IMG/VR virus record: IMGVR_UViG_2534682329_000006
DNA: 28,514 nucleotides
Source: a virus
Lineage: Duplodnaviria; Heunggongvirae; Uroviricota; Caudoviricetes
Direction: 5' to 3' (one strand)
Positions 4,681 to 23,869 of the stretch are shown here, piece by piece. The notes beneath the pieces were generated by a model. The model saw only the letters and a list, made by a program, of their open reading frames with translations, did no database searches and was not told the origin of the DNA. Made by a program: the position numbers and the translations under genes. The first letter of the stretch is position 1. Each line of letters opens with the position of its first letter.

Positions 4681-4951
4681 GTTTCAGTTCCTCGATCCGG
4701 TGTTGTCGTTGTCTCAGCAGCGCGCTGGTCTGTTCTGCTTCGGCATAGAGCCGCGCCTGCTCCCGGTTATTGGTTTCAGTCAGAATGGACAGGCTGATAA
4801 GCTGGCTGTTGCTCTTTGCCAGTGCCTGGCTTTTGCTCTGCAGCTCGTCTGCCTGCGTGCTAATGGTCTGGCTGGCATCAGCCAGCCGCCACGTCTGCCA
4901 GCCCAGCGCCGCCAGTAATAACGCCAGCACAACCAGCAGCAACCGGTTCAT
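4523..4951 (-). CDS. lysB: LysB, Rz-like inner-membrane spanin (i-spanin)
   Basis: 142-aa ORF with N-terminal TM segment then a charged coiled-coil-like region (…EELKRENEDLRRW…); P2 lysB position. Confidence 0.8.
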   Translation of the reverse strand: MNRLLLVVLALLLAALGWQTWRLADASQTISTQADELQSKSQALAKSNSQLISLSILTETNNREQARLYAEAEQTSALLRQRQHRIEELKRENEDLRRWADTPLPADIIRLRERPTLTGGAAYRQWLSASDTVSAGSGSATH

Positions 4952-5325
4952 GCTGCTACCTGTTGCGCCATCTGATTACGGGTGATCCAGAAGGCAATAA
5001 CGGTCAGTAGATAAAAGACCAGGGTAATAGCCCACCCCGTCCAGCCGAGACTTACAACAATCAGCAATCGCATCACCCAACTGATAAATACGTTTTCTTT
5101 TCGGGTAATTGTCTTCAGTAAAGATGCCCTTAACTCCTGCCAGAGCGGGCCATTCTTAATTAACGCAGCCAGTGCTACCGGAATTACCGCCCATGTCAGC
5201 AAACAGGCTACCCAAACGCCGGACGCTGCCAGTACCGGAAAAATCCCCTGCGGATACACCATTGCTGCGATTAACAGCGCCATCCATAACATCAGAAACA
5301 GTCCGCTGATTAATTTCTTTTTCAT
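4948..5325 (-). CDS. lysA: LysA-like membrane protein (lysis timing/antiholin-like)
   Basis: Multi-TM hydrophobic protein; likely start at the internal Met (MKKKLISGLFLMLWMALLIAAMVY…) immediately after the endolysin stop; the track ORF extends to 5397. Confidence 0.65.
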   Translation of the reverse strand: MKKKLISGLFLMLWMALLIAAMVYPQGIFPVLAASGVWVACLLTWAVIPVALAALIKNGPLWQELRASLLKTITRKENVFISWVMRLLIVVSLGWTGWAITLVFYLLTVIAFWITRNQMAQQVAA

Positions 5326-5326
5326 T

Positions 5327-5839
5327 TCAGTTTGCTCCCTGTAAACACCAGGCCATCTCCCGCGCACGGCGGTTATCCAGCCCCTGATTAAACACACCTT
5401 TTACATAAACCCAGCGCGGCAACTGTCGGCACGCATCCGCCCAGCGCCGCTGATTGAGCAATTTCACCAGCGTGGAGCTGCAGGCATTGCCCGTCCCCAC
5501 GTTGAAGGCAAACGACACCGTAGCGTCATACACCTTCTGTGGTGGCAGTTGCTTCACACACCTTTCCAGTACCCGCTCCACACGCAGCACGTTGGAGATC
5601 AGCCCTTCTGCTGCCTGTCGTTCCGTGATTGTTTTGCCGGGAATGACGCCCGATGTATTACCAATGCCGTCGGTCCATACACCCGCGCTGCACTGATACG
5701 GCTGCAGACGACAGCCTTCGTAATCAGCAATCAGTTTCAGCCCCTCCACGGAGGTGTGAAGCTGCTGAAACCCCGGCAGCGTGGCAGCAATAGCCAGCAC
5801 GGCCCCGACAAGGCAGCGTTTAACGATTGATGGATTCAT
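5327..5839 (-). CDS. SAR-type endolysin (T4-lysozyme-like/GH24 fold with N-terminal signal-arrest-release domain)
   Basis: N-terminal hydrophobic G/A-rich segment (VGAVLAIAATLPG) followed by lysozyme motifs (…YEGCRLQPY…GVWTDGIGNT…FNVGTGN...STL); resembles phage 21 R21-type SAR endolysins rather than P2 gpK. Confidence 0.8.
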   Translation of the reverse strand: MNPSIVKRCLVGAVLAIAATLPGFQQLHTSVEGLKLIADYEGCRLQPYQCSAGVWTDGIGNTSGVIPGKTITERQAAEGLISNVLRVERVLERCVKQLPPQKVYDATVSFAFNVGTGNACSSTLVKLLNQRRWADACRQLPRWVYVKGVFNQGLDNRRAREMAWCLQGAN

Positions 5840-6035
5840 AGTCCTCCCGCGAGATCTGCCCGTCGCGCAGAAGCTGGTAGGCTTTGTGTTTGTAGTACCA
5901 GTTGATAGCCAGCATCAGTACACCAATCATCAGGCCGCCCAGCGTTGAGGCATCCTTGATAGACAAATCGCCCAGCCAGGCCAGCACGACGGCGATGCAA
6001 TACGTGATAAAGGCGCTGATTCGCTCAAGCGTCAT
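5820..6035 (-). CDS. Holin (small two-TM, pinholin-like)
   Basis: 71-aa protein with two hydrophobic helices and a charged C-terminus, directly upstream of the endolysin in the P2 Y position. Confidence 0.7.
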   Translation of the reverse strand: MTLERISAFITYCIAVVLAWLGDLSIKDASTLGGLMIGVLMLAINWYYKHKAYQLLRDGQISREDYESINR

Positions 6036-6038
6036 AAT

Positions 6039-6242
6039 TCAGTCCCATAGCTGGACGGTCTGCACGGTGGTGGTTGTCGGAATGTCCGGCAGCTCCACCT
6101 GCAGCCCGTGAGGTAAAAAGGGGCCGTATTCGGCAAGCCCCGGATTTGCCTTCAGTACCTGCTCCGTGACACCCTGCGTGCGCCCGTAATGACGCCAGCA
6201 AAGCGCGTCCACCGTGTCATACTGATGCGCACGCACTTTCAT
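6039..6242 (-). CDS. X: Tail protein gpX
   Basis: 67-aa ORF, same size and position as P2 gpX. Confidence 0.75.
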   Translation of the reverse strand: MKVRAHQYDTVDALCWRHYGRTQGVTEQVLKANPGLAEYGPFLPHGLQVELPDIPTTTTVQTVQLWD

Positions 6243-6769
6243 CAGATAAGCTCCACTGTGCAGTGCGGCGCATCCTGCACCCGGCTGATGGCCCAGCGGG
6301 CGTCACGCCACAAATCACCGCTTGCTTCCGCCAGTTCCTCGCCCCGCTTCACACCGGACGCCGTGGCGTCATAGTCCTGGTATCGTTCGTTGAGCATGGC
6401 GCGTGCCCAGCAGTAAACCGCGTTGAAATAGTGCTGAATGCGCTCACTTTTGCCGTCCAGCTGTTCCGCCGGAACTTCTGCCAGCGAGGCATACCCCAGC
6501 ATCTGCTGGCGTCTGCGAAACTCATACAGCTCTGCGTTGACCTCCGAAATTGCCGACAGCGCAACCTGCTTTAAACGCGGCTGCGTCACCGTGCCGTCAG
6601 TGCGCATCACGCTGCGAAACTCCGACAGGTCCACATCAGGCCAGAACGGCGTATTCCTGATGATTTCCGCCTGTTCCGGTGCCTGTTCTGGCGCAACAAA
6701 CTTCATGCTGCTTTCTCCTGAAATAGAGGGCGGTGGACGGGGTTTTGATGTGGCAGTGCCTTTCGCCAC
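6242..6769 (-). CDS. L: Head completion/stabilisation protein gpL
   Basis: 175-aa ORF in the P2 L position (P2 gpL 169 aa); synteny. Confidence 0.8.
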   Translation of the reverse strand: MAKGTATSKPRPPPSISGESSMKFVAPEQAPEQAEIIRNTPFWPDVDLSEFRSVMRTDGTVTQPRLKQVALSAISEVNAELYEFRRRQQMLGYASLAEVPAEQLDGKSERIQHYFNAVYCWARAMLNERYQDYDATASGVKRGEELAEASGDLWRDARWAISRVQDAPHCTVELI

Positions 6770-6801
6770 CCCGTGCCGCCCGTGCGCGGGGGCACGTTCT
6801 G

Positions 6802-7452
6802 TCAGCGGCTGTCATTGCGCAGTCTGCGCTCCAGCTGCTGTTTGTCTTTTTTCACGCCACAGCGAGGATCGAGCTGTAACGCATGGTTGAGATGATTAAG
6901 GGCGGAAGCCGGGTTGCTTTCACTCAGGACAGCGCCAATCGCTTTATGCAGACGCGCCCGTGACTGGTCCGGCATATCCAGACCGTCTGTCAGCTCCAGC
7001 GTCTGCAGCAACAGATCGGCATCAAAGCCGGTGGCGGCAAGCATTGCGCTCTGCGCCGCGTCTGCCATTTCCTCTGCCAGCACGGTCTGCACGTTGCGGT
7101 TACCCAGCGGCATCACCCAGCCATGACGCAGGGCATGACGCCCGATCTCCAGCGCCCCTGCATAATCTCCGGCATCAATGCGCCACAGCATCACGTACAT
7201 CAGCACGTCATCCTGTTGAGCGCCTCCGGCAGCCAGAACGCCCTCCGCCCAGGCGGCATATTTCGGCAGCAGCTCCACCTTGATTTCCGCTTTTTTGACC
7301 GTGGACTGAACGCCCTTGAGACGGCGGCGGTCTTCCGCCAGTTGCAGCAGCATCAGGTCATAGCCCGACGCGTGGCGAACACTGCCACCCTCGCGAGCGG
7401 CCTGTTCAGCCTGAACGCGCAGGCGATGCTGCCGTGCGGGACTCAGGCTCAT
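6802..7452 (-). CDS. M: Terminase endonuclease/small subunit gpM
   Basis: 216-aa ORF between L and N as in P2; synteny and size. Confidence 0.8.
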   Translation of the reverse strand: MSLSPARQHRLRVQAEQAAREGGSVRHASGYDLMLLQLAEDRRRLKGVQSTVKKAEIKVELLPKYAAWAEGVLAAGGAQQDDVLMYVMLWRIDAGDYAGALEIGRHALRHGWVMPLGNRNVQTVLAEEMADAAQSAMLAATGFDADLLLQTLELTDGLDMPDQSRARLHKAIGAVLSESNPASALNHLNHALQLDPRCGVKKDKQQLERRLRNDSR

Positions 7453-7455
7453 GAA

Positions 7456-8514
7456 TTACGCTCCGGTTTCTGCTGCGGCGGCGCTGAAGTCACCAATCTG
7501 GATGTTTTCCACCAGTGCAGCGCAGCGATAGTCCTCAACCACATAGGCTTCGTTAACGGATTCAAAATTTTCAATCCGGTCACGTTTCGGGTTGTCGATA
7601 ACTGAACGGCGGCGGGTATCTTCCTGCCAGTAGATGGACAGGTTATCCAGACGGGTGATCAGCAGCGCATTCGGCGGGAAGAACGGCGCACGCACCGCCT
7701 GCAGGCCACCCATGCGTTTCTGACTGATGATCATATCGGCAGCCAGTTTTTCACTGTTTTCCTGCTCTTTGTTGACCAGCGGGAAATACTTGTCAGACAG
7801 CAGTTCACGACCGCAAATCACCACCAGATCGTCATCGTCCTGGTAGACCACATCGATAAGCTCATTGACGGCATCCATCACTACGGCGTCCAGGTTGGCA
7901 TATTCGCCACCTTTCCCGACTTTCACCGCGCCCGGTGTGGTTTCACCGCCCGTGGTGGTGCTGCCCATGACGTGATCCGGTGCATCCTCACGGATTTTCT
8001 GCAGCCAGCCTTTGTTCACATCCTGCAGCAGCGGGTTTTCGCTACGGTTGGAGGTTTTCGCACGCTTCACGCCGTTAAAGCCGATCATGATGCGGTCCAG
8101 TGCCTGACGTTTCACGATGGCGTTACGGATACGCACCTGGAAATCCTGAAACTTCGCCCACAGGTCCAGCTTCGCGTAGGTCAGCACCGTGTCAAAGTTG
8201 GTCTGTTCGCATTTGTATTCCACATCGACCATCAGCGTCGGATCGACAGGTTCTCGCTCTTTCGCGGTGGTATCAGTGGTTCCGGCAATGGTGCTGCCAA
8301 CACCCAGCCCCAGCAACTGACCAGACTGCTCAGTCACTGGCGTGACGTTAATCAGCGTCAGGAAAGAGGCGGACTGCTGGATCTGGTCTTCCAGCGTCTG
8401 CTGCACGGACGGCTCTACGGTGAACTTGCTGGACAGTTCTTCAACTGCCACACCGTTCAGACGCGCCAGCTGCTGCAGGTAAGCGTTAAAAGCAAAGCGG
8501 GTATTCTTCTTCAT
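7456..8514 (-). CDS. N: Major capsid protein gpN
   Basis: 352-aa ORF (P2 gpN 357 aa) between scaffold and terminase M. Confidence 0.88.
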   Translation of the reverse strand: MKKNTRFAFNAYLQQLARLNGVAVEELSSKFTVEPSVQQTLEDQIQQSASFLTLINVTPVTEQSGQLLGLGVGSTIAGTTDTTAKEREPVDPTLMVDVEYKCEQTNFDTVLTYAKLDLWAKFQDFQVRIRNAIVKRQALDRIMIGFNGVKRAKTSNRSENPLLQDVNKGWLQKIREDAPDHVMGSTTTGGETTPGAVKVGKGGEYANLDAVVMDAVNELIDVVYQDDDDLVVICGRELLSDKYFPLVNKEQENSEKLAADMIISQKRMGGLQAVRAPFFPPNALLITRLDNLSIYWQEDTRRRSVIDNPKRDRIENFESVNEAYVVEDYRCAALVENIQIGDFSAAAAETGA

Positions 8515-8530: not shown

Positions 8531-9364
8531 TCAGCAATTGGTCAGAGTGTCAGCGGGGGCGTTACCGCCTGTTGCACGCTGGCGGTAGTCCTGGCGGCTG
8601 TCTTCATGACTCAGCTTATTCACCAGTTCGTTAAAGGCGGTCTGCTGTGCCTGCAGGGCAGTCTCCAGCTCAGACAGACGTTCTTCCTGCTCAGACAGGG
8701 ATTTTTCGGTGCGTGCGCTCAGGTTTTGCTGCTCAGTGGCGACCAGCTCCACGGCCTTATGCACATCAGAGAACCGGGCATCGTCGGACTGCTCTTTTTT
8801 GGTAAACAGCGCCGTGACACGGGCAAACAGGGACGGTTTGTCCTCCTGGATTTCTTCCAGTTCGATCACCGTTTCCTCTGCGGCGGTAAAGAGATTGGCG
8901 GGATTCTGCTTGCGGTTTGCCAGCGGGTTATGGGCTGCACTGGCGCTGAATGTCAGCATTTCCGTACCCAAACTGGCAGGGTCATCAGTGGCAGCCAGGC
9001 CGACCAGGTAGGCTTTGCCCGTATCAGCGAACTTCGGGCTGACTTCCATAGAGGTGAATAATTTCTGGCCTTTTTTCACCAATTCCACCAGGGACTCCGT
9101 TGGCTCAACGTCGGCATACAGCGCCATCTTGCCTGCCAGCGGGCCTTCCGTGATTTCTTCAGCAAACAGCGCCGTCACCTTGCCGTAACGGTTAAAGGTG
9201 CTGTCCGGGAGATAAGACTTGATGTGCTCAAGGTTAATCAGCGCGGTATACACCGCCGGGTTGTAGCTGGCTGCCATCTGTTCCAGCCATTCACGCTGGA
9301 TTTCGCGTCCGTCGGTGGTGGCACCTTCCACCCCGATGCGAAAACGCTTTGCTTTCACTGTCAT
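8531..9364 (-). CDS. O: Capsid scaffolding protein gpO
   Basis: 277-aa acidic, coiled-coil-rich ORF (P2 gpO 284 aa), divergent from P. Confidence 0.85.
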   Translation of the reverse strand: MTVKAKRFRIGVEGATTDGREIQREWLEQMAASYNPAVYTALINLEHIKSYLPDSTFNRYGKVTALFAEEITEGPLAGKMALYADVEPTESLVELVKKGQKLFTSMEVSPKFADTGKAYLVGLAATDDPASLGTEMLTFSASAAHNPLANRKQNPANLFTAAEETVIELEEIQEDKPSLFARVTALFTKKEQSDDARFSDVHKAVELVATEQQNLSARTEKSLSEQEERLSELETALQAQQTAFNELVNKLSHEDSRQDYRQRATGGNAPADTLTNC

Positions 9365-9506: not shown

Positions 9507-11273
9507 ATGAACACCACACTGACATCCGCAGATCTCGATCCCCGTCGGCAGGCCATGCTGCTGTACTTTCAGGGATACCGCGTAGCCCGCATTGCTGAAA
9601 TGCTGGGCGAGAAAGTTGCAACCGTTCACAGCTGGAAGAAACGCGACAAGTGGGGTGACTATGGGCCGCTGGATCAGATGCAGCTCACCACCGCCGCACG
9701 TTACTGCCAGCTCATTATGAAGGAGCACAAAGAAGGGAAAGATTTCAAAGAAATTGACCTGCTGGCGCGCCAGTCGGAGCGCCACGCGCGGATCGGCAAG
9801 TTTAACAATGGCGGCAACGAAGCCGACTTAAACCCTAACGTCGCCAACCGCAACAAAGGCCCGCGCCGTCAGCCGGAAAAGAATGTTTTCACCGATGAAC
9901 AGATAGATAAACTGGAAGAAATCTTCCATTCCTCCATGTTCAACTACCAGCGCCACTGGTGGGAAGCCGGAAAAACCAACCGCATCCGCAACCTGCTGAA
10001 GTCACGCCAGATCGGCGCGACCTTTTACTTTGCCCGTGAAGCCCTGATTGACGCCCTGCTTACCGGACGTAACCAGATTTTCCTTTCTGCCAGTAAGGCA
10101 CAGGCTCACGTCTTTAAGCAGTACATCATCGACTTCGCCAAAGAAGTCGAGGTGGAGCTGAAAGGCGATCCGATGGTGCTTCCTAACGGGGCCACGCTTT
10201 ACTTCCTCGGCACCAATGCCCGCACGGCGCAGAGTTACCACGGCAACCTGTATCTGGATGAATATTTCTGGATACCGAAATTCCAGGAGTTGCGCAAAGT
10301 GGCTTCCGGTATGGCTATTCACAAGAAATGGCGACAAACCTATTTTTCCACGCCATCCAGCCTGACCCACAGTGCTTATCCGTTCTGGTCCGGTGCGCTG
10401 TTCAACCGTGGACGCAACAAAGCTGACAAGGTGGACATCGACCTGTCCCACAGCAATCTGGCCCCCGGCCTACTGTGCGCAGACGGGCAATACCGCCAGA
10501 TAGTCACCGTGGAAGATGCGGTGCGCGGCGGCTGTAACCTGTTCGACCTCGACCAGCTGCGCATGGAGTACAGCCCGGACGAATACCAGAACCTGCTGAT
10601 GTGCGAGTTCGTGGACGATCTCGCGTCCGTGTTCCCGCTCAGCGAACTGCAGGCGTGCATGGTGGACAGCTGGGAAGTCTGGACCGACTTTCATGCACTG
10701 GCCCTGCGCCCGTTTGGCTGGCGCGAAGTGTGGATCGGTTATGACCCGGCAAAAGGTACGCAGAACGGCGACAGTGCCGGATGCGTGGTGGTGGCTCCGC
10801 CAGCCGTGCCGGGTGGTAAGTTCCGCATTCTTGAGCGTCACCAGTGGCGCGGGATGGACTTCCGCGCCCAGGCTGACGCCATCAAAAAACTGACCGAACA
10901 GTATAACGTGACCTATATCGGTATCGACTCGACCGGCGTCGGTCACGGGGTTTACGAGAACGTGAAAGCGTTTTTTCCTGCCGTCAGGGAGTTTGTCTAC
11001 AACCCCAACGTTAAAAACGCCCTGGTACTCAAGGCCTACGACATTATCAGCCACCGCCGTCTGGAGTTTGACGCCGGGCACACCGACATTGCGCAGTCAT
11101 TTATGGCAATCCGTCGCGCTACCACTGCCAGTGGCAACCGCCCGACCTATGAAGCAAGCCGCAGCGAAGAAGCCAGCCATGCCGATCTGGCCTGGGCAAC
11201 AATGCACGCACTGTTTAACGAACCGCTGCAGGGCGAGTCCGCCAATACCAGCAATATTGTGGAGATTTTTTGA
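9507..11273 (+). CDS. P: Terminase ATPase/large subunit gpP
   Basis: 588-aa ORF (P2 gpP 590 aa); divergent from O and followed by Q as in P2. Confidence 0.9.
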   Translation: MNTTLTSADLDPRRQAMLLYFQGYRVARIAEMLGEKVATVHSWKKRDKWGDYGPLDQMQLTTAARYCQLIMKEHKEGKDFKEIDLLARQSERHARIGKFNNGGNEADLNPNVANRNKGPRRQPEKNVFTDEQIDKLEEIFHSSMFNYQRHWWEAGKTNRIRNLLKSRQIGATFYFAREALIDALLTGRNQIFLSASKAQAHVFKQYIIDFAKEVEVELKGDPMVLPNGATLYFLGTNARTAQSYHGNLYLDEYFWIPKFQELRKVASGMAIHKKWRQTYFSTPSSLTHSAYPFWSGALFNRGRNKADKVDIDLSHSNLAPGLLCADGQYRQIVTVEDAVRGGCNLFDLDQLRMEYSPDEYQNLLMCEFVDDLASVFPLSELQACMVDSWEVWTDFHALALRPFGWREVWIGYDPAKGTQNGDSAGCVVVAPPAVPGGKFRILERHQWRGMDFRAQADAIKKLTEQYNVTYIGIDSTGVGHGVYENVKAFFPAVREFVYNPNVKNALVLKAYDIISHRRLEFDAGHTDIAQSFMAIRRATTASGNRPTYEASRSEEASHADLAWATMHALFNEPLQGESANTSNIVEIF

Positions 11274-12310
11274 TGGGAAAGAGTAAAAAAAAATGCGCTG
11301 CGGCGACGAACCAGATCCAGCATAAAAGCCAAGCTTCAGCCGAAGCATTCAGCTTCGGTGATCCCATTCCAGTACTTGACCGCCGCGAACTGCTGGACTA
11401 TGTGGAATGCGTACAGACAGATCGCTGGTATGAACCTCCCGTCAGCTTTGACGGACTGGCGCGCACCTTCCGCGCTGCCGTGCATCACAGTTCACCAATT
11501 GCAGTGAAATGCAACATTCTGACCAGCACCTACATCCCTCACCCGCTGCTCAGCCAGCAGGCTTTTTCGCGTTTTGTGCAGGACTATCTGGTTTTTGGTA
11601 ACGCCTACCTGGAGAAACGCACGAACCGCTTCGGTGAAGTTATCGCCCTTGAGCCTGCACTGGCAAAATACACCCGACGCGGGTTAGACCTGGATACCTA
11701 CTGGTTTGTGCAATACGGTATGACAACCCAGCCGTATCAGTTCACGAAAGGCAGCATTTTTCATCTGATGGAACCGGACATTAACCAGGAGATCTACGGC
11801 CTGCCCGGTTATCTTTCTGCCATTCCGTCAGCTCTGCTCAACGAGTCCGCCACGCTGTTCCGCCGCAAGTATTACATTAACGGCAGTCATGCAGGCTTCA
11901 TCATGTACATGACCGATGCTGCGCAGAACCAGGAGGATGTGAACAACCTCCGCAATGCGATGAAAAGCGCCAAAGGTCCTGGTAACTTCCGTAACCTGTT
12001 TATGTACTCGCCTAACGGTAAAAAGGACGGGCTTCAGATTATCCCGTTGTCAGAAGTGGCGGCGAAGGATGAGTTCCTGAATATCAAGAACGTGAGCCGG
12101 GACGACATGATGGCGGCGCATCGTGTGCCGCCACAAATGATGGGGATAATGCCTAATAATGTCGGGGGGTTTGGGGATGTGGAGAAGGCTAGTCGAGTGT
12201 TTGTCCGCAATGAACTGATGCCACTGCAAAAGCGGCTGCAAGAGCTGAACAACTGGCTAGGTGAAAAAGTGATTTGTTTTGAATCTTACAACTTAGATAT
12301 TTCTGAGTAA
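11270..12310 (+). CDS. Q: Portal protein gpQ
   Basis: 346-aa ORF (P2 gpQ 344 aa); start overlaps the P stop; last gene before the cos region. Confidence 0.88.
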   Translation: MMGKSKKKCAAATNQIQHKSQASAEAFSFGDPIPVLDRRELLDYVECVQTDRWYEPPVSFDGLARTFRAAVHHSSPIAVKCNILTSTYIPHPLLSQQAFSRFVQDYLVFGNAYLEKRTNRFGEVIALEPALAKYTRRGLDLDTYWFVQYGMTTQPYQFTKGSIFHLMEPDINQEIYGLPGYLSAIPSALLNESATLFRRKYYINGSHAGFIMYMTDAAQNQEDVNNLRNAMKSAKGPGNFRNLFMYSPNGKKDGLQIIPLSEVAAKDEFLNIKNVSRDDMMAAHRVPPQMMGIMPNNVGGFGDVEKASRVFVRNELMPLQKRLQELNNWLGEKVICFESYNLDISE

Positions 12311-12314
12311 ATTA

Positions 12315-12350
12315 AAGCGCCTGCATTTGCAGGCATTCTATTATTCTTTA
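12315..12350. terminator. Bidirectional rho-independent terminator between convergent Q and the 98-aa ORF
   Basis: Hairpin GCCTGC-ATTT-GCAGGC (12319..12334) flanked by T-rich sequence on both strands, directly after the Q stop codon. Confidence 0.55.
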
Positions 12351-12637
12351 ATTAGTGCCCCCCATACGGAGTCCATATCAACTTCCTCAACTACAATGCA
12401 AATGGAGCAATGAACATGACCATCAGCAATGCGTAGGTAATTGAAAAGCCTTGTTTTCACCCGCCCATCAAATTGAGCACGCCCACCCTTATTCGTAATT
12501 GTTACGTAGTCTCCCACATTTGGAAGCATCAAAAGCGAGTTGTCTTCTGAATTACACCCTACAACCTCTCCATCATCATCAGGGCGATCCTGACCTTTGC
12601 GCATATATTGAAAATCATAGCTATAAGTAGTTTTCAT
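12341..12637 (-). CDS. Hypothetical small protein (98 aa) between Q and cos
   Basis: Open reading frame only; no motif recognised; weak Shine-Dalgarno; AT-rich relative to flanking core genes. Confidence 0.35.
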   Translation of the reverse strand: MKTTYSYDFQYMRKGQDRPDDDGEVVGCNSEDNSLLMLPNVGDYVTITNKGGRAQFDGRVKTRLFNYLRIADGHVHCSICIVVEEVDMDSVWGALIKE

Positions 12638-12842: not shown

Positions 12843-12861
12843 CTCGTATCCCCGCCACGCC
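12843..12861 (-). other. Candidate cos site (cohesive-end sequence)
   Basis: Minus strand reads GGCGTGGCGGGGATACGAG; the first 13 nt fit the P2/186 cohesive-end sequence as I remember it (GGCG[A/T]GGCGGGGA…); lies where cos is expected, between Q and the accessory/A region. Confidence 0.45.
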
Positions 12862-12902: not shown

Positions 12903-12930
12903 AAGCAAAAGCCCGCCATTCCTGGCGGGC
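12903..12930 (-). terminator. Rho-independent terminator of the accessory operon (minus strand)
   Basis: 8-bp GC-rich stem GCCCGCCA/TGGCGGGC with a 4-nt loop (12911..12930), followed on the minus strand by TTTTGCTTAT; about 100 nt downstream of the HIRAN gene stop. Confidence 0.6.
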
Positions 12931-13031: not shown

Positions 13032-13736
13032 TCACCGAACGGATACTTTTGCATAAATCAAAGGCCTATCCGAAGAGCCATTTTTACGTACGACCACTCC
13101 ACTGACATCATGGTTTTTACTTAGATCACGTAATGCGGCGCACAATGCCTTGTTGACATATCCGAGATGATTGTCGTTTTTCGTAACCAATATGGCCAGC
13201 GGATCAACCGTATTGGTATCTTCATTCCGCAATATGACTTCATCACCAATTGATATCTCATCAAGCGCTAGACGCCCTTCCTTGATCATGTGCCTCGTTC
13301 CAGCGACCTCCATGACGTAATCGAAAGGTGGCCGAACAGAAGACAAGTCTGGGACAAAATAAAAACCATCACTAGCAACTTTTCCGCCAGTACATGCGAG
13401 CAAAACGAAGTCATTCTCTCTAAAATCAGCAGGAAGACGAAACGTCAGCAAGTAATCGTCAAAATCTTCTCTTTTCCTGGAGGGTAACCTTCTTGAAAAG
13501 GTTTGCATAACGTCTTTGCGATGAGTCGCAACTTTTATATCAAAAGCAGGAAAACCGCGAAAGCCGTTATCCCTAGCTTTAGCAAAATCTTTGCTATCAG
13601 TAAGATAATTAAACTCGTAGCCTTCAGACTCATCTTGAAGAAGCTCACCAACGACATAGCGAGAGCCTCCGTCAACCGGTTGCCATGTCAGTAAGAGCCT
13701 ACTGGGCATGGGAATGTTTTCTATTAAGATAGTCAT
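13032..13736 (-). CDS. HIRAN-domain protein (unknown N-terminal domain plus C-terminal HIRAN-like domain)
   Basis: C-terminal segment (…GDEVILRNEDTNTVDPLAILVTKNDNHLGYVNKALCAALRDL…) fits the HIRAN pattern (L.RE..N..D.NAI.V....LGY…A..L); start overlaps the kinase stop (ATGA coupling). Confidence 0.6.
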   Translation of the reverse strand: MTILIENIPMPSRLLLTWQPVDGGSRYVVGELLQDESEGYEFNYLTDSKDFAKARDNGFRGFPAFDIKVATHRKDVMQTFSRRLPSRKREDFDDYLLTFRLPADFRENDFVLLACTGGKVASDGFYFVPDLSSVRPPFDYVMEVAGTRHMIKEGRLALDEISIGDEVILRNEDTNTVDPLAILVTKNDNHLGYVNKALCAALRDLSKNHDVSGVVVRKNGSSDRPLIYAKVSVR

Positions 13737-14644
13737 GAAGTAACACCTTTAATCAGTTCAATACGCATGTTTGTTACACGAACAATCCATGCAGCACGTT
13801 CTCTAGTCAGCGGAACAGGGCAGTTTATTTCCGTCAACTCCGCAAAAGTTGACTCCCAAAAATCATGGTTCAAAAGAGCCAGTTTTTCAGCTACCCGCTG
13901 TTTTAATGCTTCTTTTTTATCACAAAGTTCTTTGATGAACTCTAAATGACCTAATCTCTGATACTCATCTTTGCCCAGAGTCTTACGCAAATGATGCCTT
14001 CCCCGGCCAACATGCTCCCTGAGTCTATGATCGGTCCAATCGGCAACATGCTCCGGAAAGCGTTCGTAACATAAGCTCGTACCATTATCGAAAAATGGTG
14101 CAAGCTGACACTCGCTGGCTAAAGGTGAAAAGACAAACCCCCAATTTTCTTGATGTCTATCTGTATTACCTATCACAGCGTCAAAGAGAGCCATGTCCTC
14201 CAACCACTCAACATAGTCAACTTTAAGAGCTTTCGCGATAATCCTCAGCCCTTCAAGGGAATGCTGAGCTCCTTTCTCGCGATCAAAATTTGGATCTCTT
14301 CGGACAAAGTAATCACCAGCGGGAGCAAATTTCTCATAATCTTTATGATGAAACCACTCAATGAGGGCCCCGCAAAACGTATGCCCCAAATCATTAGTCT
14401 TTACCGATGGAACTGCTTTGGGGACATCAAAACCAAGCTTCAATCCAATCCTGTAGGCAACGATCTCACACCAAAATTGATCTGGATACTTTTTAATACT
14501 TCTCTTAAAAAGATACGGCCACGATGCTTTGATACCATGGGGTGCTACATCAGGGGAAATAACCAATGCCTTAGAGCGAGCACCAACAGGATATTGTGCG
14601 AAAACATCTAGCTCAGTCCAATTGGTTACATCTAAGCAATCCAT
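13733..14644 (-). CDS. HipA-family serine/threonine kinase, short form (303 aa, lacks the HipA N-terminal subdomain)
   Basis: Catalytic-loop motif FDAVIGNTDRHQENWGF matches the HipA/CtkA signature (…IGNTD.H..N…); about 300 aa versus about 440 for E. coli HipA. Confidence 0.7.
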   Translation of the reverse strand: MDCLDVTNWTELDVFAQYPVGARSKALVISPDVAPHGIKASWPYLFKRSIKKYPDQFWCEIVAYRIGLKLGFDVPKAVPSVKTNDLGHTFCGALIEWFHHKDYEKFAPAGDYFVRRDPNFDREKGAQHSLEGLRIIAKALKVDYVEWLEDMALFDAVIGNTDRHQENWGFVFSPLASECQLAPFFDNGTSLCYERFPEHVADWTDHRLREHVGRGRHHLRKTLGKDEYQRLGHLEFIKELCDKKEALKQRVAEKLALLNHDFWESTFAELTEINCPVPLTRERAAWIVRVTNMRIELIKGVTS

Positions 14645-14659
14645 AGCTAAGTCCTATAT

Positions 14660-15220
14660 TTATTTTTTATTTAAATTCATATAGATATGAGAAACCAGTG
14701 CGATCTGAAATAAAACATCATCGAATGCTGTGTGCCTGATGCCAGTGAACTTTTTGTCAGCATGAGAAAAAATTCCTTTGCTTTCACCAAGCGCTAAGAT
14801 GGTTCTGACGTCAAGAGTATCTCTGAATGACCATGGGCACTCCAGACCTGCCTGTGACAGGGCATGATGCATGATAGTGCAGTCGAACTCTTTCCCGTTT
14901 CCCCACACTTTTACTCGGCCATTACGATTATGAAGAACAAACGCCACAAATTCATTCAGAACGTCTAAAAGGTCCTTAGTGCCACCAAAATTTTCGTTTT
15001 TAGCTTCAGAACTTTGATACATCCACCACTTTACAGTGGAGGGGGCAATGGTTCTGCCTGCTTGTTCATGATCAAGCGAAATAACTTGATAGAAACCCGG
15101 ACCAACCTCGCCAGTCTCCGGCACGAAGAAAGCCGCACCAACCGAAAGGATATAAGCCGTTTTTTCAACATCCAATGTTTCTATATCTAACATTACATGA
15201 TTCATAACAAGCATTTGCAA
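14660..15220 (-). CDS. DEDDh-type (DnaQ-like) 3'-5' exonuclease
   Basis: Exo I motif MLDIETLD near the N-terminus and Exo III motif HTAFDD near the C-terminus; about 185 aa. The track start is TTG; in-frame ATGs follow at 15214, 15205 and 15193. Confidence 0.7.
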   Translation of the reverse strand: MQMLVMNHVMLDIETLDVEKTAYILSVGAAFFVPETGEVGPGFYQVISLDHEQAGRTIAPSTVKWWMYQSSEAKNENFGGTKDLLDVLNEFVAFVLHNRNGRVKVWGNGKEFDCTIMHHALSQAGLECPWSFRDTLDVRTILALGESKGIFSHADKKFTGIRHTAFDDVLFQIALVSHIYMNLNKK

Positions 15221-15361
15221 CCATTTAGTAAAAATTGAACGCCATTACCACATTAGGGTATGGCAGGTTCGTTTGTGAACGAAAACGAGTGTTCTGATTG
15301 TAACCCAAGTTAAAAGTTCAAGCGTCGTAACTTTCACTCGGTTGTTTTCAGCTTTGAAAAA

Positions 15362-15550
15362 CTAACCAGGAAGATCCATTGAGCGGTTGTATTCATGAGC
15401 GCGAATCTTCGCCATAAGCTCATCGGTCAACTCCGAAACCCACTGGATAGCCAGCCGCTTTTCTTCGTCGTTACACTCACTAGCCGCTACAAGCTTAATA
15501 AAAAAATCAATGCGCTGGAGCTTCAACGACTCCAAAAGATAGTCCTGCAT
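15362..15550 (-). CDS. Small hypothetical protein (about 62 aa) downstream of the LexA box; possible SOS-induced regulator (Tum-like antirepressor is a guess)
   Basis: In-frame ATG at 15550 is preceded by a strong Shine-Dalgarno (GGAGGG); the longer track ORF (to 15667) would run through the LexA box and promoter. No sequence motif recognised. Confidence 0.4.
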   Translation of the reverse strand: MQDYLLESLKLQRIDFFIKLVAASECNDEEKRLAIQWVSELTDELMAKIRAHEYNRSMDLPG

Positions 15551-15599
15551 CTTCCCTCCTATCACGACCACGGACACACGATAGCTGTATGCATGCATA

Positions 15600-15615
15600 C
15601 TGTATATATATACAG
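15600..15615. promoter_or_regulatory. LexA operator (SOS box)
   Basis: CTGTATATATATACAG is a perfect match to the LexA consensus CTGT-N8-ACAG with an ideal AT-rich spacer; lies about 50 nt upstream of the small ORF and inside a promoter-like AT-rich region (TTGACG on the minus strand upstream). Confidence 0.75.
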
Positions 15616-15712
15616 TACACCCCTGGTATTCAAATGTAAAATATTTTTTATCCGTCAATGAGAACACTCTGGCGCAGAGTCGTTAAGAGCATGAATTGTT
15701 AAAGCCTTGCTG

Positions 15713-18106
15713 TCAGTACCACTGCCGCCATTTGTCATCTTCCTGCAGCCGGTGTTTGCGGTAAAAAATACGCAGCCCGGCACCTGACGGAATGCTGCCG
15801 CCACGTAAAAGTAGATCCACTTCAGCATCGCTTGCATTAAATCCCCGGGAGCTGAGTTCTGCCTCAAGCTGCAGGCGCTGTTGCTCCGAAATACTCTGTA
15901 TGTATGCTTTTTTCCGCTTCGGTTTTACCAGTCTCAACCTGGCTGTCAGCTCCCGGCGTTCCTTCTGGCCCATATTGTGTAGGTAATCCTGCAGTTCCTG
16001 CTCATTCATGGTTTTAATATCGGGCAGCTCCCCCCCTGTCTGGTTCAAATTTTCAACAGGGGGACAGTTATTGCCACGAGTCCAAGGGGCGCAAGCGCCC
16101 TGGTCGGCTGCCGCCTCCTGAACGTCAACGGCTTTACGAACCATTTTCCACTTCACTGCATGAGTGCAGATCTTGCCCTCTGCAATGGGTGACCAGATGC
16201 CATAAATACGAATGCCGTGATCGCCATAGGCGGTCGGCTCTTCGTTGATTTCATAAGCGGTTCTGATGAGGTGATATTTACGGGGTACCAGTACGCCGCC
16301 CTGCTTCATGATGTAGGTGGCAAAACAACCAGCATCAGCAGCAGCCAGAATGGCATCAAGACGCGGGTTATCCAGTACCGGCGCACCTGCTTTTTTGTCA
16401 CCCTGTTGCCTTGCCGCCTGACCAGCCAGCAAGCGAAGTTCACGGTAAGCCTGACGCCCCGGAATACCAAAGAAGCGGAATTGCTGAACACGATGCAGAG
16501 ACGCCCAGGCATTCACGTATTCAGCGTTATCACGCAGAGATTTACCCGTTTCCTTGCTGATCTCGCCAGCCAGACCACGACCGTCAATGTTCTTACTGAT
16601 ATATTTCGCGATGTAGCTTGTCGGCGTTCCTTTGCGCGGGTTAATCAACTCAGACTTAAAGCGCGGCCCAGTGTTATTGCCCAGCTCCTCGCGGTCTTCA
16701 CGGATGGCAAACTTACGCAGTAATGCAGTGATGGCACGGCGGTCTTTTTTGCGCATGAAACACAACAGGTGCCAGTGAACTGTGCCATCATGATGCGGCT
16801 CAGCCACCCGCACGCCATACCAGCGCAACCCGGCTTTGTGCATCGCCTTACGAAATGCAGCAAACATGCCGACCAGATAATCGCTGCTTTGTCTTACCGT
16901 CGCGTTTGTCCAGGTCGGGTTTGGTCTGCCGTTATTTAGCGTGGAATGGAAACGCGACGGACAGGTGATAGTGTAGAAAACGGCGCAGTCACCGCGCATT
17001 TCCGCGATAAGCTCCAGACCTTTAACACAGGCCATCATCTCATTGCGGCGATGCGCAGGGTTGCTGCTGCTGGCGTTTACCACATCCTCCATGTCCAGCG
17101 TGTCGCCGTCTTCGTTCACCAGTTCATGAGAACGGAAAAACTCCAGCGACTTACGGCGCTGCTCACGTTTATGCATCACGGCTTCATAGCTGACATAAGG
17201 AGATGCTTTTTTGCTGACCAGGCAAACAGCGCGCAACTGCTCTTCCCGCCATTCGCAACGCATCTTCCATAATTTCCGATACCACCAGTCGGCGCACAAC
17301 ATACGCGCCAGCGAACCCGGAATGAGTTCATAGGGCACGGGTTTACGGCGGTTTCTTTTCCGACGGAGTTGCTCAAACGCAGGTGGGATGACATCCAGAC
17401 GCAGGGTTTCCGCTGCCACCTTTTCCCATGTCTTGCGGATTTCTTCTGGCTTAACGTCATCGGTGGCATACAAATCACCACAAGCTGCATCAAGGCACAT
17501 ACTCATATGCGCAGCTACCAGGGTGGACAGGCGTTTCACCTGATCCTGACTCATTTCAGGCAGGATCAGCAGGCCGTCCAGCCCTTCATGGCTTGCCATA
17601 AAGCGAAAAGATGCAGATAGCTGACTGTCGCGTACATGCTCCAGTCGTTCCAGACATGGCTTAATCGTCTCACGTAAATAGCGGGAATAAGCCTTTGGCC
17701 TGCCCAGGCTGCTGAAGTATTTAATACGTTGCATCAGCGGCTTGCTGATATGGGAAGGCTGAGCGTTGACATCCGCCAGAATGACCATGTCCGGATTAAA
17801 ACGCTGCTGCTCATGCGCCAGCTTTGCCCGGCTAATTAGCTTATCCTGCTCCATTTCGCGCTGGACAGGATCACGGGATTCATTAAAGAAATAACGCTCC
17901 CAGACCTGATCACTCAGTGCCTCGCGGCGCAGTTGTTCCTGCTCGTTATCGGCAGCGTACAGAGTGATCAGGTTTGAAAGCGCAGAAACCGGCGCAACTT
18001 CCGCCGGGTCCAGATAAGGGTTAATGGCCTTTTTCGGGCTGTTCCATGAGAATGCTGCGGCAGCCTCGTTAAAGCCGCAGCAGTTGTTCATATCGGCATG
18101 ACTCAT
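15713..18106 (-). CDS. A: Replication initiation protein gpA (rolling-circle HUH endonuclease)
   Basis: 797-aa ORF (P2 gpA 761 aa) with the HUH motif (…[10 protein letters not shown]…); start overlaps the dam stop. Confidence 0.88.
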
Positions 18107-21785: not shown

Positions 21786-22802
21786 ATGACCATCAGAAAA
21801 CAGCCGAACGGAAAATGGTTGTGTGAGTGCTATCCCAATGGACGCAATGGTAAGCGCGTGCGTAAGCAATTTGCTACGAAAGGCGAAGCCATTGCTTTTG
21901 AAAGCTTCACAATGGAAGAAGTGAATAAAAAACCGTGGTTGGGTGAAAAGGATGATCGGCGACGCCTATCAGAATTAATTGAGCTTTGGTATTCCCTGTA
22001 TGGTCAGACACTCGCAGACCCCAAGCGCCTCATGGCGAAACTTAGAATTATCTGTAATGGTCTAGGCGACCCCATCGCCTCAGAACTGACAGCCGGTGAC
22101 TTTACGAAATACCGCGAAGCACGGTTAAAAGGTGACGTTCGTAACGAAGACGGCACACTAATGTCGCCAGTAAAACCACGCACGGTGAATCTTGAGCAAC
22201 GTAACCTATCATCGGTTTTCGGCACATTGAAAAAACTAGGCCACTGGTCAGCACCAAATCCTCTCGCCGGGCTGCCAACATTTAAAATCGCTGAGGGGGA
22301 ACTGGCGTTCCTGACCTCGGAAGAAATTAAACGTCTGCTAGATGCCTGCGCTGATTCTCAAAACCCCAGTCTGCTTTTGATTGCAAAAATATGCCTGGCC
22401 ACCGGCGCACGCTGGAGTGAAGCCGAAAACCTGCAGGGCCATCAGTTATCTAAATACCGCATCACTTATACCAAGACGAAGGGTAAGAAAAACCGCACCG
22501 TGCCGATATCTCAAGATCTGTATGACGAACTCCCCAAGAACAGAGGGAAGCTATTCACCCCGTGCAGAAAAGCCTTTGAACGAGCAGTAAAGCGAGCTGG
22601 CATCGAGCTGCCAGAGGGCCAATGCACTCACGTGCTACGTCATACATTCGCCAGCCATTTTATGATGAATGGCGGAAACATACTGGTGCTACGCGATATT
22701 CTGGGCCATGCCGATATAAAAATGACGATGATCTATTCTCATTTTTCACCAGAACACTTAGAAGATGCAGTAACTAAGAATCCTTTAAATTATATTGAGT
22801 GA
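21786..22802 (+). CDS. int: Tyrosine integrase (P2-type site-specific recombinase)
   Basis: 338-aa protein with the catalytic H-x-x-R box (HVLRHTFASH) and C-terminal tyrosine region (IKMTMIYSHF); last core phage gene before att. Confidence 0.88.
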   Translation: MTIRKQPNGKWLCECYPNGRNGKRVRKQFATKGEAIAFESFTMEEVNKKPWLGEKDDRRRLSELIELWYSLYGQTLADPKRLMAKLRIICNGLGDPIASELTAGDFTKYREARLKGDVRNEDGTLMSPVKPRTVNLEQRNLSSVFGTLKKLGHWSAPNPLAGLPTFKIAEGELAFLTSEEIKRLLDACADSQNPSLLLIAKICLATGARWSEAENLQGHQLSKYRITYTKTKGKKNRTVPISQDLYDELPKNRGKLFTPCRKAFERAVKRAGIELPEGQCTHVLRHTFASHFMMNGGNILVLRDILGHADIKMTMIYSHFSPEHLEDAVTKNPLNYIE

Positions 22803-23869
22803 AAATCATGTTAAGTGATACTTGTTATACAGTGATTTATATTACAGCAATCGTTTTATTAGTATTTATTACAATAGTAAAAAAATGGTACATACTTGAT
22901 AAAAGAAATTTATTTCGTCAGAAATTATTTTGGATTTCAGTTTTAACACCTTTATTTTCCTTTATCTATTTTGTTTTTTTCACATGGTGGGGAAAAGAAC
23001 CAGTACTCTCCGCACATGGCTATTCAAGATTTTACGAAATAAGCAAATTCCCTCTACTATTGCTAGCTAGTGCAGTTCCTTTGGCTTCGATCGTCAACAA
23101 TATACATCGCACTATACAAACCGAAGCTCAGATCAACACCGCTGAAACGAAAAATGCAGTCGATAGATATTTAGCACATGAGAAAAACTTTATTGAGAAA
23201 ACAAAGGAAATATTCGCCTACAATCTTCAAAGCGCGAGAGGCTCAGATGGAAACCTCATTAAATTCAATGGCGAACCAAATATCACTTTGTTTACAGCAG
23301 ATGAAATTAAAATTTCCAACCCATATCTTTTATATACAAAAATATACAACAAATCAACTATAGAGACCACATCTAACTTCACCGCAAACCCTGATTTTTT
23401 AGTGCAATTAAAGGAGTACTTAAACACAATTAATAATACTCTGTCGGTTCAACACTCTATAGATGAATATAATCCATTAAGTTACATGATTCGACTTAAC
23501 ACTTTGTCATATAATACAGCCTCGTTATTAGACCTGATATGTACATCCCCCATATCTCATGTATACTGTTTGATAAAATATGATGGGTATCAATTAAAAA
23601 CATTTACACTTGAAGAACAAGTATTCGCCGATATTTTAGAAATATCATATCTTCTATCAAGAAAACTAATTCGTTTGATATATAATGAAGATATACCACA
23701 TTACGACAACATTTATAATTACTTATATGTTGGTAAGTTGAGGTTTAAATTCAGAAAACACGCCTATTCTTTACAAGCATTTTCTTCGCAGGAATGGGCT
23801 GATTACGTTTCTGAAGCACTAACTCTAGTTCCTAACGAAGTTGGCGGCACTTTGGCGGCAGCGCATTAA
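22799..23869 (+). CDS. Hypothetical membrane protein, AT-rich cargo gene between int and att
   Basis: About 355-aa ORF with two N-terminal TM helices then an N/Y/I/K-rich domain with no recognised motif; visibly AT-rich; start (GTG at 22799 or ATG at 22808) overlaps or abuts the int stop. Confidence 0.55.
   Translation: MKIMLSDTCYTVIYITAIVLLVFITIVKKWYILDKRNLFRQKLFWISVLTPLFSFIYFVFFTWWGKEPVLSAHGYSRFYEISKFPLLLLASAVPLASIVNNIHRTIQTEAQINTAETKNAVDRYLAHEKNFIEKTKEIFAYNLQSARGSDGNLIKFNGEPNITLFTADEIKISNPYLLYTKIYNKSTIETTSNFTANPDFLVQLKEYLNTINNTLSVQHSIDEYNPLSYMIRLNTLSYNTASLLDLICTSPISHVYCLIKYDGYQLKTFTLEEQVFADILEISYLLSRKLIRLIYNEDIPHYDNIYNYLYVGKLRFKFRKHAYSLQAFSSQEWADYVSEALTLVPNEVGGTLAAAH

Follow-up and report, generated by a model that had tools for sequence, protein, structure and literature searches.

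The window, a stretch of 28,514 nucleotides from a member of the Caudoviricetes, carries three neighbouring minus-strand genes for an exonuclease, a HipA-family kinase and a HIRAN-domain protein, which the initial annotation took for a candidate novel three-gene defence or abortive-infection system. This raises the question of which of the genes belong together, which known systems they resemble, and whether they serve anti-phage defence. In our assessment, the cassette is a good, although not unprecedented, candidate anti-phage module and, with a probability of roughly 60%, an SOS-wired, HIRAN-gated kinase toxin-antitoxin or abortive-infection module accompanied by a lineage-specific DexA-like exonuclease accessory.

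Layout of the locus and the A-cos cargo slot

The three open reading frames are located on the minus strand at 14660..15220 (186 aa if read from TTG), 13733..14644 (303 aa) and 13032..13736 (234 aa), and are referred to below as exo, the kinase gene and hipN. The stop codon of exo is separated from the ATG of the kinase gene by 15 nt, while the kinase stop and the hipN start share the tetranucleotide ATGA. With GC contents of 0.419 (exo), 0.432 (kinase) and 0.437 (HipN), as opposed to 0.533 for gene A and 0.512 for the portal gene, the trio is AT-rich compared with the phage core, and exo has the low GC content of the kinase and hipN, i.e. it is cargo-like and unlike the backbone. The co-orientation, the tight spacing, the base composition and the position between gene A and cos, all described in the initial annotation, were confirmed: gene A (15713..18106) lies on one side of the cassette, and the portal gene (11270..12310) and the cos-like 19-mer GGCGTGGCGGGGATACGAG (12843..12861, minus strand), which marks the edge of the cargo slot, lie on the other. 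This 19-mer, which we take to be cos, judging from the cohesive-end sequences of 186 and P2, is part of a segment of approximately 150 nt that is 85-91% conserved in Fels-2-like phages of Klebsiella, Salmonella and E. coli. A strong terminator at the end of the operon had also been noted; it exists, but its position is approximately 100 nt beyond the hipN stop codon, where GCCCGCC-AGGAAT-GGCGGGC followed by TTTTGCTT (12903..12930, minus strand; stem 12911-12930, T-run 12903-12910, folding z = -4.3 for the region) forms an intrinsic terminator that closes the unit before cos. A scan of the whole window against Rfam gave no match.

Upstream of the cassette, the unit includes a fourth element that had previously been overlooked, namely a LexA box together with a small backbone ORF. 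The LexA (SOS) box TACTGTATATATATACAGTA (15598..15617, no strand assigned) lies in the promoter region between gene A and the leader ORF and corresponds to the perfect CTG-N10-CAG consensus, with 20 of 20 positions matching and 0 mismatches. The leader ORF (15362..15550, minus strand; phrog_698) encodes 62 aa, has an AGGAGG Shine-Dalgarno sequence 5 nt before its ATG at 15550 and opens the predicted SOS unit as its first gene, and it does not count as cargo; among the 66 Fels-2-like phage records having it, 58 show 80-93% conservation, whatever cargo they carry. A 101-aa ORF 5' of exo, considered as a further cassette member, proved to be an over-extension through the LexA box, the real gene being the 62-aa ORF. 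LexA boxes are found at the equivalent position in SopEPhi, MLG42 and E. coli SF-173, and the LexA-controlled p95/tum (DinI-like) unit of coliphage 186 presumably has a comparable box after A.

The content of the slot differs between related phages, as expected of variable cargo: SopEPhi carries DinI and two unrelated ORFs, MLG42 carries DinI and otherwise small ORFs only, and the Klebsiella relatives contain almost nothing. The initial annotation had referred to the A-cos region of P2-like phages as a hotspot for anti-phage systems, and this is documented (Rousset 2022, PMC9122126), with no mention of HipA or HIRAN in the main text of that study or of the 2026 P2/P4 hotspot paper. The A-cos position and the interchangeable cargo are common to the tin/old hotspot of P2 and the slot in the window, whereas the P2/186 cargo Tin, Old, Tum and DinI is unrelated to the genes found here. 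The nuclease and kinase system of P4 called 'Bandua' is probably different from the window cassette as well, because PADLOC reportedly does not recognise it. The best explanation of the window, which we consider rather probable, is the right end of a 186/Fels-2-type prophage with a four-gene SOS-controlled unit composed of a LexA-box promoter, the 62-aa backbone ORF, an imported cassette of 2.2 kb, the terminator and cos.

Domain identities and relation to known HipA systems

Profile searches, PDB profiles and fold comparison upheld all three domain calls of the initial annotation. The exo product (14660..15205, minus strand; approximately 181 aa) is a DEDDh 3'-5' exonuclease of the Rv2179c-like/DexA-like type, which matched PF16473 (Rv2179c-like) with 8.5e-51 and has an RNase-H-like DEDD fold with the Exo I (D-x-E), Exo II (D) and Exo III (H-x4-D) residues. 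The motifs DIETLD (D12, E14) and HTAFDD (H163, D168), already recognised as Exo I and Exo III, are invariant among the homologs, as is FD (D113). Although the reading frame extends up to TTG 15220, the most likely start is ATG 15205 (MNHVMLDIETLD, as in all homologs) or the PGAP-style start at 15193 (177 aa). A PDB search with the single sequence alone yielded a spurious match, so that profile and fold searches were required for this protein. T4 DexA, Rv2179c of M. tuberculosis, RNase T and Cap18 share this fold and the full set of five catalytic residues; however, none of these enzymes is known to be coupled to a kinase.

The second gene (13733..14644, minus strand) encodes a small HipA-family Ser/Thr kinase of the HipI type, a predicted toxin without the N-subdomain 1 of HipA. 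It matched PF07804 (HipA_C) with 6.3e-10, which is over the curated cut-off, and the PADLOC model PDC-M03A with 1.6e-34 over residues 1-298. The HipA catalytic loop IGNTDRHQENWG is present as initially described, and in an alignment of 24 kinases its residues D162 and N167 are invariant together with FDNGTS (D186) and K47, i.e. the catalytic core is intact. The nearest solved relatives of the kinase profile in the PDB are CtkA (6e-13) and HipT (1e-4), with which the core could be aligned.

The third protein, HipN, matched PF08797 (HIRAN) over the cut-off with 6.9e-8 at residues 140-220 and the B models of PDC-M03 with 5.8e-37. Its reading as a HIRAN sensor was correct with regard to the C-terminal HIRAN domain (residues ~138-234 plus stop codon, 13032..13325, minus strand), a predicted sensor of DNA 3' ends, but incomplete, as fold comparison revealed a HipS-like domain at the N-terminus of the same protein (residues ~1-135, 13332..13736, minus strand), a predicted kinase-neutralising antitoxin module. 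Both folds were verified in a HipN model with a pLDDT of 95, while the sequence profile of HipN matched PDB entries in the HIRAN half alone, the HipS-like half needing structure prediction. The presence of the HipS-like domain makes the suggested toxin-antitoxin logic concrete.

By their architecture and the PADLOC models, on which the assignment of the kinase rests, the kinase gene and hipN together belong to the hipIN family (HipI + HipN) and match the candidate system PDC-M03. The hipIN and the fused HipL kinases were defined by phylogeny in a purely bioinformatic study, which covers bicistronic and monocistronic forms and describes no upstream exonuclease, phage-slot context or LexA control (Gerdes, Baerentsen & Brodersen 2021, PMC8262856). 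In hipIN, as in the window, a small HipA-homologous kinase gene lies immediately upstream of, and overlaps, a gene for a partner with a HipS-like N-domain as well as a HIRAN domain at the C-terminus, in one operon. PDC-M03 is a HipA + HIRAN defence candidate obtained by 'guilt-by-embedding' (Payne et al. 2024); its A and B models are both matched by the window proteins and its embedding in restriction-modification (R-M) loci was seen independently here, but it is a two-gene candidate without an exonuclease model, in contrast to the exo-preceded cassette of the window. In the literature, we found no experimental test of any hipIN or PDC-M03 member.

HipBST from E. coli O127 and Legionella is likewise a split HipA with a small kinase and a separate HipS-fold protein, and HipS neutralises HipT by occupying its Gly-rich loop and active site (HipBST structure paper). 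The window cassette differs from it by the kinase-first order, the fusion of the HipS-like domain to HIRAN and the lack of a HipB/HTH gene: no HTH protein is encoded between the LexA box and the terminator, and the 62-aa ORF gave no HTH match in Pfam or NCBIfam. The relation between the window kinase and HipT is also a distant one (profile E ~1e-4). A kinase with a non-HipB partner is found in HipAD/DS-6, in which a HipA-family kinase is paired with a DUF3037/DUF1829 protein and whose validated anti-phage activity requires the catalytic residue of the kinase (DefensePredictor, PMC13092281); its partner, however, is unrelated to HipN, with neither a HipS-like nor a HIRAN domain, and it includes no exonuclease. 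A parallel in terms of gene neighbourhood is offered by the diDNase-HipA-HIRAN clusters on mobile elements of Actinomycetes and Clostridia, in which a small DEDD 3'-5' nuclease directly adjoins HipA/HIRAN genes (NAR 2025, PMC11706625), as exo does in the window; this is the case in approximately one third of the 93 Gram-positive diDNase loci. However, the diDNases belong to a different DEDD subfamily (DEDDy, NrnC-type deoxydinucleotidases), and the DEDDh enzyme of the window has neither the DEDDy signature nor the NrnC-like fold and dimer. The initial view of the gene combination as unknown therefore has to be corrected, since the kinase with its HipS-HIRAN partner corresponds to hipIN (2021) and PDC-M03, and DEDD nucleases beside HipA/HIRAN genes had already been reported in Gram-positives.

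Conserved kinase-HipN core and linkage of the exonuclease

In approximately 140 of 144 loci (80 species-level genome and 64 viral loci), the kinase is followed by the HipS-like and HIRAN partner; the two genes are overlapping or translationally coupled in most loci and fused in 26. Within a search range of 6 kb, by contrast, exo is present in 4/80 genome loci and 28/64 viral loci and absent from the other 76 and 36, and the loci that bear it are almost all in the same A-cos phage slot. One P2-like phage contains the kinase-HipN pair without exo. No other conserved upstream partner was found in the exo-less loci, only recurrent HsdS neighbours: in 12 loci of bacterial genomes, the specificity gene of a type I R-M system directly precedes the pair, and type I methylases are among the flanking genes. 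The 'three-gene system' of the initial annotation thus does not hold as a general description, as the conserved core consists of two genes and exo, confined to one lineage and context, is a lineage-specific accessory and not a general component.

Where the linkage exists, it is tight. In all 33 linked loci, which represent 21 unique cassettes with protein identities down to ~40%, exo lies 9-23 nt upstream of the kinase gene on the same strand, in keeping with the operon-like arrangement proposed for the window. The linked exonucleases form two separate lineages, their monophyly being recovered in 0/100 NJ bootstraps; in 98/100, the window type clusters with stand-alone chromosomal exonucleases of Serratia and Gibbsiella (45-49% identity to the window exonuclease). 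A single origin of the linkage was not supported, given this non-monophyly in 100/100 bootstraps, and a repeated or ancient union is therefore implied. The pairwise identities of exonucleases and kinases are correlated (r 0.96-0.98), which, because the linked exonucleases are non-monophyletic, reflects co-divergence within the lineages and is not proof of one ancient cassette.

The two-gene hipIN pair alone could also be the system, with exo as a phage gene in its own right (a DexA-like enzyme of nucleotide salvage or recombination, or a DinI-like SOS-regulated moron) that ends the same SOS or early unit and behind which hipIN was inserted. The exo-less majority of hipIN loci fits this explanation, and so do the abundance of the exo family on its own (609 INPHARED records and at least 576 IMG/VR stretches, with 77 of the 80 nearest viral relatives lacking a kinase), its occurrence adjoining A within the early operon of other P2-like phages, the stand-alone chromosomal relatives that are nearer to the window exonuclease than the phage-899-type enzymes, the LexA box directly upstream of exo in phage 899, and the lack of a match between exo and any PADLOC model. 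We nevertheless consider it doubtful, since exo never occurs without the kinase in this slot among the samples examined, is absent from backbone relatives sharing A and the leader ORF, keeps a constant gap to the kinase gene and shares the GC content of the cargo. In addition, one trio cassette lies beside an IS3 element outside any detectable P2 phage context, and two exo lineages as well as the DEDDy diDNases have each been joined to HipA/HIRAN genes. It is very improbable that exo is a counter-defence or signal-degrading enzyme of the phage, directed for example at oligonucleotide second messengers or other DNA/RNA immunity signals and functionally unrelated to the kinase pair, as the operonic coupling and the shared divergence with the pair in each lineage would be unexpected for an unrelated anti-defence gene, and fold similarity among DEDDh enzymes is generic.

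Predicted SOS control and proposed mode of action

Upstream of exo, 25 of the 27 unique exo-linked cassettes have a LexA box, compared with 0/100 exo-less loci, and the box is accordingly a backbone feature of the phage slot and not of the hipIN family. In the window, it marks the predicted SOS-controlled promoter region of the slot, with the cassette located downstream. A simple sigma-70 scan detected no consensus promoter upstream of exo or at the LexA box, and a relaxed scan gave weak candidates only, so that expression of the cassette in the lysogen is putative.

In the HIRAN-gated module favoured here, the hipIN pair would be the functional core and the HipI kinase the toxin, which, by analogy with HipA and HipT, may phosphorylate an essential translation factor and thereby arrest growth. 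HipN's HipS-like domain would keep the kinase inactive in the way HipS blocks the Gly-rich loop and active site of HipT, while the HIRAN domain may bind short DNA fragments or ssDNA ends with a free 3'-OH, ligands that could arise when the phage replicates or when DNA is degraded or damaged. Once bound, they would release the HipS clamp or change its position, and the activated kinase would then lead to abortive infection or growth arrest. By trimming 3' ssDNA ends or oligonucleotides, the exonuclease could set the trigger threshold or reset the signal, which is perhaps especially needed because of SOS expression and the phage's own nick-primed rolling-circle replication. A defence context is supported by the variable A-cos cargo slot, the R-M neighbours, the embedding origin of PDC-M03 and the HipAD/DS-6 precedent, whereas the exo-less majority of loci, the frequency of the exo family on its own, the P2-like phage with the pair alone and the missing sigma-70 consensus count against the model.

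The LexA control could also mean that the purpose of the cassette lies in induction or in the response to DNA damage and not in defence. It would then act as a prophage addiction toxin-antitoxin, or as an SOS-linked growth arrest serving prophage induction, in which HIRAN senses DNA damage and host translation is halted (persistence or checkpoint). Both the perfect LexA box with its counterparts in the linked cassettes and the SOS modulator DinI in the same slot of relatives are in line with such a role; in eukaryotes, HIRAN domains operate where DNA is damaged or stalled, and HipA kinases are the classical persistence toxins (PMC8262856, PMC11706625), and the anti-phage role of the cassette is itself inferred. 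However, the box belongs to the slot, bacterial family members are embedded in R-M loci, and the slot is a known reservoir of anti-phage systems, so that we regard a primarily non-defensive role as unlikely, bearing in mind that such roles and defence are not mutually exclusive.

A more far-reaching and quite tentative proposal is that a DEDD exonuclease sets the level of the HIRAN ligand (3'-OH ssDNA ends or short fragments) that unlocks a HipA-type kinase, in a three-component immune or checkpoint module assembled independently at least two or three times, from two DEDDh lineages of the Rv2179c/DexA type in P2/186-type phages of proteobacteria and from NrnC-type DEDDy diDNases in Gram-positives, with the phage versions under LexA control and armed by DNA damage. 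If true, the sensing of DNA 3' ends or breakdown products by HIRAN would join the infection signals of bacteria, the recurrence of two unrelated DEDD nucleases beside HipA/HIRAN genes would be explained, and cargo of the 186/Fels-2 A-cos slot would be shown to be SOS-wired; if the model fails, a catalogued candidate pair adjoining an ordinary phage exonuclease would remain. Predictions of HIRAN-coupled Hip kinases date from 2021 and their listing as defence candidates from 2024, and the window cassette offers a compact and native example from E. coli/enterobacteria that lends itself to direct cloning. Natural comparisons are offered by cassettes with split or fused kinase and HipN, with or without exo, and with or without LexA control; the fused kinase-HipS-HIRAN versions occur in sister cassettes, for example in phage 899.

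Cassette anatomy and identity of the kinase-HipN pair

The three minus-strand ORFs proposed in the initial annotation were recovered, namely the DEDDh exonuclease (14660..15220), the small HipA-family kinase (13733..14644) and the HIRAN protein, here called HipN (13032..13736), with 15 nt between exonuclease stop and kinase start and an ATGA overlap between kinase stop and HipN start. The exonuclease ORF is open to TTG 15220, but judging from its homologs the true start is most probably ATG 15205. The claimed AT-richness also holds, with a GC content of 0.42-0.44 for the cassette genes as opposed to 0.53 for replication gene A and 0.51 for the portal gene. All three domain calls exceeded the curated Pfam thresholds (Rv2179c-like DEDDh exonuclease, 8.5e-51; HipA_C, 6.3e-10; HIRAN, 6.9e-8). 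The quoted exonuclease and kinase motifs are present and correspond to conserved catalytic positions in the family alignments, in which the catalytic Asp, the Asn and the Mg-binding Asp of the kinase are all invariant, and the kinase profile aligns with the catalytic core of CtkA and HipT. The strong terminator was found at 12903-12930 (minus strand), with a 7-bp GC core, 11 bp when folded, followed by TTTTGCTT; beyond it lies a cos-like 19-mer (12843-12861, minus strand). The observation is confirmed and its first interpretation partly supported.

The combination had been described as not known, which does not apply to the kinase and HipN, since the cassette is a member of hipIN/PDC-M03, an already predicted family. 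In PADLOC, the kinase matched the PDC-M03 A model (1.6e-34) and the HIRAN protein the B model (5.8e-37). PDC-M03 originates from a “guilt-by-embedding” screen as a predicted candidate system, while hipIN was defined phylogenetically as a small HipI kinase followed by HipN, which combines a HipS-like part with HIRAN; HipL is the monocistronic kinase-HipN fusion (Gerdes et al., 2021, PMC8262856). Our literature search yielded no experimental study of hipIN or HipL. HipAD/DS-6, a distinct HipA-kinase pair, has been validated as a defence system (PMC13092281). The present variant additionally has a DexA-like DEDDh exonuclease and lies in a phage cargo slot under predicted LexA control, and it would be a convenient object on which to test putatively HIRAN-gated Hip kinases experimentally for the first time.

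HipN proteins form a real, if fairly small, family, with 238 clusters at 50% identity (E<=1e-30, among 1.84 billion representatives), and the kinase has at least 318 relatives in 185,579 species genomes. Around these relatives, 80 bacterial and 64 viral loci were scanned with iterated HMMs. The order kinase-then-HipN is essentially universal, with two separate, usually overlapping genes in 115 loci and a single fused gene in 26; PHROG 26212 also represents the fused form (547 aa). Sister cassettes with about 40% identity occur in Escherichia phage 899 (L001, PV533660, 5274-7638) and in L013, L015, L091 and L099-L111, where kinase and HipN form one protein of ~520-550 aa (HipL architecture) with the exonuclease 9-18 nt upstream. 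In 12 bacterial loci (L016, L021, L022, L025, L026, L035, L037, L044, L051, L054, L057, L058), the pair lies immediately 3' of a type I R-M specificity (HsdS-like) gene and is thus R-M-embedded. L021 contains a second HipN-like gene without a kinase (8552-9247), ~1 kb downstream of the first, and in L011 a second, weakly kinase-like fragment lies on the other strand (8554-9147). A gene for an A-like replication endonuclease closely follows an exonuclease-less pair in some loci from Vibrio, Zhongshania and viruses (L009, 8789-10639; L020, 7783-9531; L092, 3020-4870), which suggests that the pair is also carried, at a different place, by other P2-related or satellite-like elements.

Linkage of the exonuclease and a possible mechanism

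The proposed three-gene operon is present here, but the exonuclease is not a general component, as it was found in 4 of the 80 genome loci and 28 of the 64 viral loci. Linked exonucleases end 9-23 nt ahead of the kinase start. Apart from a Shewanella contig, in which the trio adjoins an IS3 transposase and groEL, every such locus is a P2-like prophage in which A and the portal gene flank the cassette. In the P2-like phage L117, the pair adjoins the portal gene without an exonuclease. In the neighbour-joining tree, the exonuclease-linked kinases all fall into a single 30-tip clade from Gammaproteobacteria, where they are intermixed with 10 exonuclease-less marine members. The linked exonucleases themselves are non-monophyletic: the window type clusters with solitary chromosomal exonucleases from Serratia and Gibbsiella (98/100 bootstraps) that adjoin dadX/dadA without a kinase, and the phage 899 type forms a separate group (93/100 bootstraps). 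Among the 80 nearest exonuclease relatives in IMG/VR, a kinase was present at three. In another group of P2-like viral contigs (L157, L171 and L214), only 4 nt separate an exonuclease of the same family (~3970-4549) from the downstream A-like replication gene (4550-7690, 1000 aa); the two belong to the early operon, and no kinase is close by. In Gram-positive bacteria, diDNase genes directly adjoin HipA and HIRAN genes in about one third of 93 diDNase loci (PMC11706625, 2025), so non-orthologous DEDD nucleases have joined the kinase/HIRAN pair in distant phyla. Tight spacing, matched GC content, shared divergence within lineages, the copy beside an IS element and the recurrence of the association have to be set against the majority of hipIN loci, which lack the exonuclease; on balance, we put the probability of a functional coupling to the kinase-HipN pair at roughly 0.6.

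HipS of the HipBST system occludes the Gly-rich loop and active site of HipT, and the natural fusions argue for direct contact between kinase and HipN. HIRAN domains bind 3' DNA ends. Most HipN proteins keep the DNA-contacting motifs, while the Phe for duplex binding is mostly absent (Gerdes et al., PMC8262856), which points to ssDNA as the ligand; the N-x2-D-x2-A motif is conserved in the HipN of the window. Beyond domain presence and linkage, we infer each step of the most economical model, in which 3'-OH ssDNA ends or DNA fragments, resulting from an infecting phage or DNA damage, would engage HIRAN, relieve the HipS clamp and allow the kinase to arrest growth. The exonuclease might remove such ends or fragments and so set the threshold or reset the switch, and its confinement to the putatively SOS-controlled slot of rolling-circle phages would fit a need to prevent self-triggering.

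LexA box and leader ORF

A perfect consensus LexA box (15598-15617) lies between gene A and a leader ORF of 62 aa (15362-15550, minus strand; phrog_698) with a strong AGGAGG Shine-Dalgarno sequence. A mechanically called ORF of 101 aa (15362-15667) was rejected as an over-extension of this gene. The leader ORF is a conserved backbone gene, found as “hypothetical” in 66 Fels-2-like phage records, and by its position could encode a Tum-like antirepressor. Upstream of the exonuclease, a LexA box (>=16/20 positions) was found in 25 of 27 unique exonuclease-linked regions at a distance of 150-740 nt, including a near-perfect one 160 nt before the exonuclease of phage 899, as opposed to none upstream of the kinase in 100 exonuclease-less loci. 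The backbones of SopEPhi, MLG42 and E. coli SF-173 carry a box at the corresponding position too, so the cargo of the slot appears to be under SOS control. No terminator-like site was found between leader ORF and exonuclease, which together with the box makes it most likely that the cassette belongs to an SOS-controlled unit, with predicted LexA binding and read-through into the cassette. The arrangement is similar to the tum/DinI-like unit of phage 186, likewise under LexA control. The 140-nt spacer between leader ORF and exonuclease contains a small perfect palindrome (TTCGTT-CACA-AACGAA, 15268-15283, minus strand), which was ruled out as a terminator because it lacks a T-run; it may instead act as an operator or form an RNA hairpin.

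Phage type, cargo slot and further AT-rich ORFs

The phage is of the 186 type, with a CI repressor containing a CI_C domain, CII/CP76 and an integrase. Comparison with relatives that have both A and the small ORF after it bears out the cassette as variable cargo: the slot contains DinI and two unknown ORFs in SopEPhi, DinI and small ORFs in MLG42, and is almost empty in Klebsiella relatives. The cassette is rare, with five complete copies and one partial copy in 5,426 complete E. coli genomes (~95% identity), whose products are annotated just as a HipA-domain protein, a HIRAN-domain protein and a 3'-5' exonuclease.

An AT-rich ORF of 98 aa (12341-12637, minus strand, GC 0.42; phrog_12676), with no Pfam or PADLOC match, separates the portal gene from cos; in SopEPhi and E. 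coli SF-173 this interval is occupied by other genes, so it looks like a second small variable slot. A very AT-rich ORF of 356 aa (22799-23869, GC ~0.35) overlaps the end of the integrase gene and gave a weak, sub-threshold DUF3810 match and none in PADLOC. It is followed on the other strand by an AIDA/pertactin autotransporter of 1252 aa (24156-27914), which is probably the prophage/host boundary or a further cargo gene beside int.
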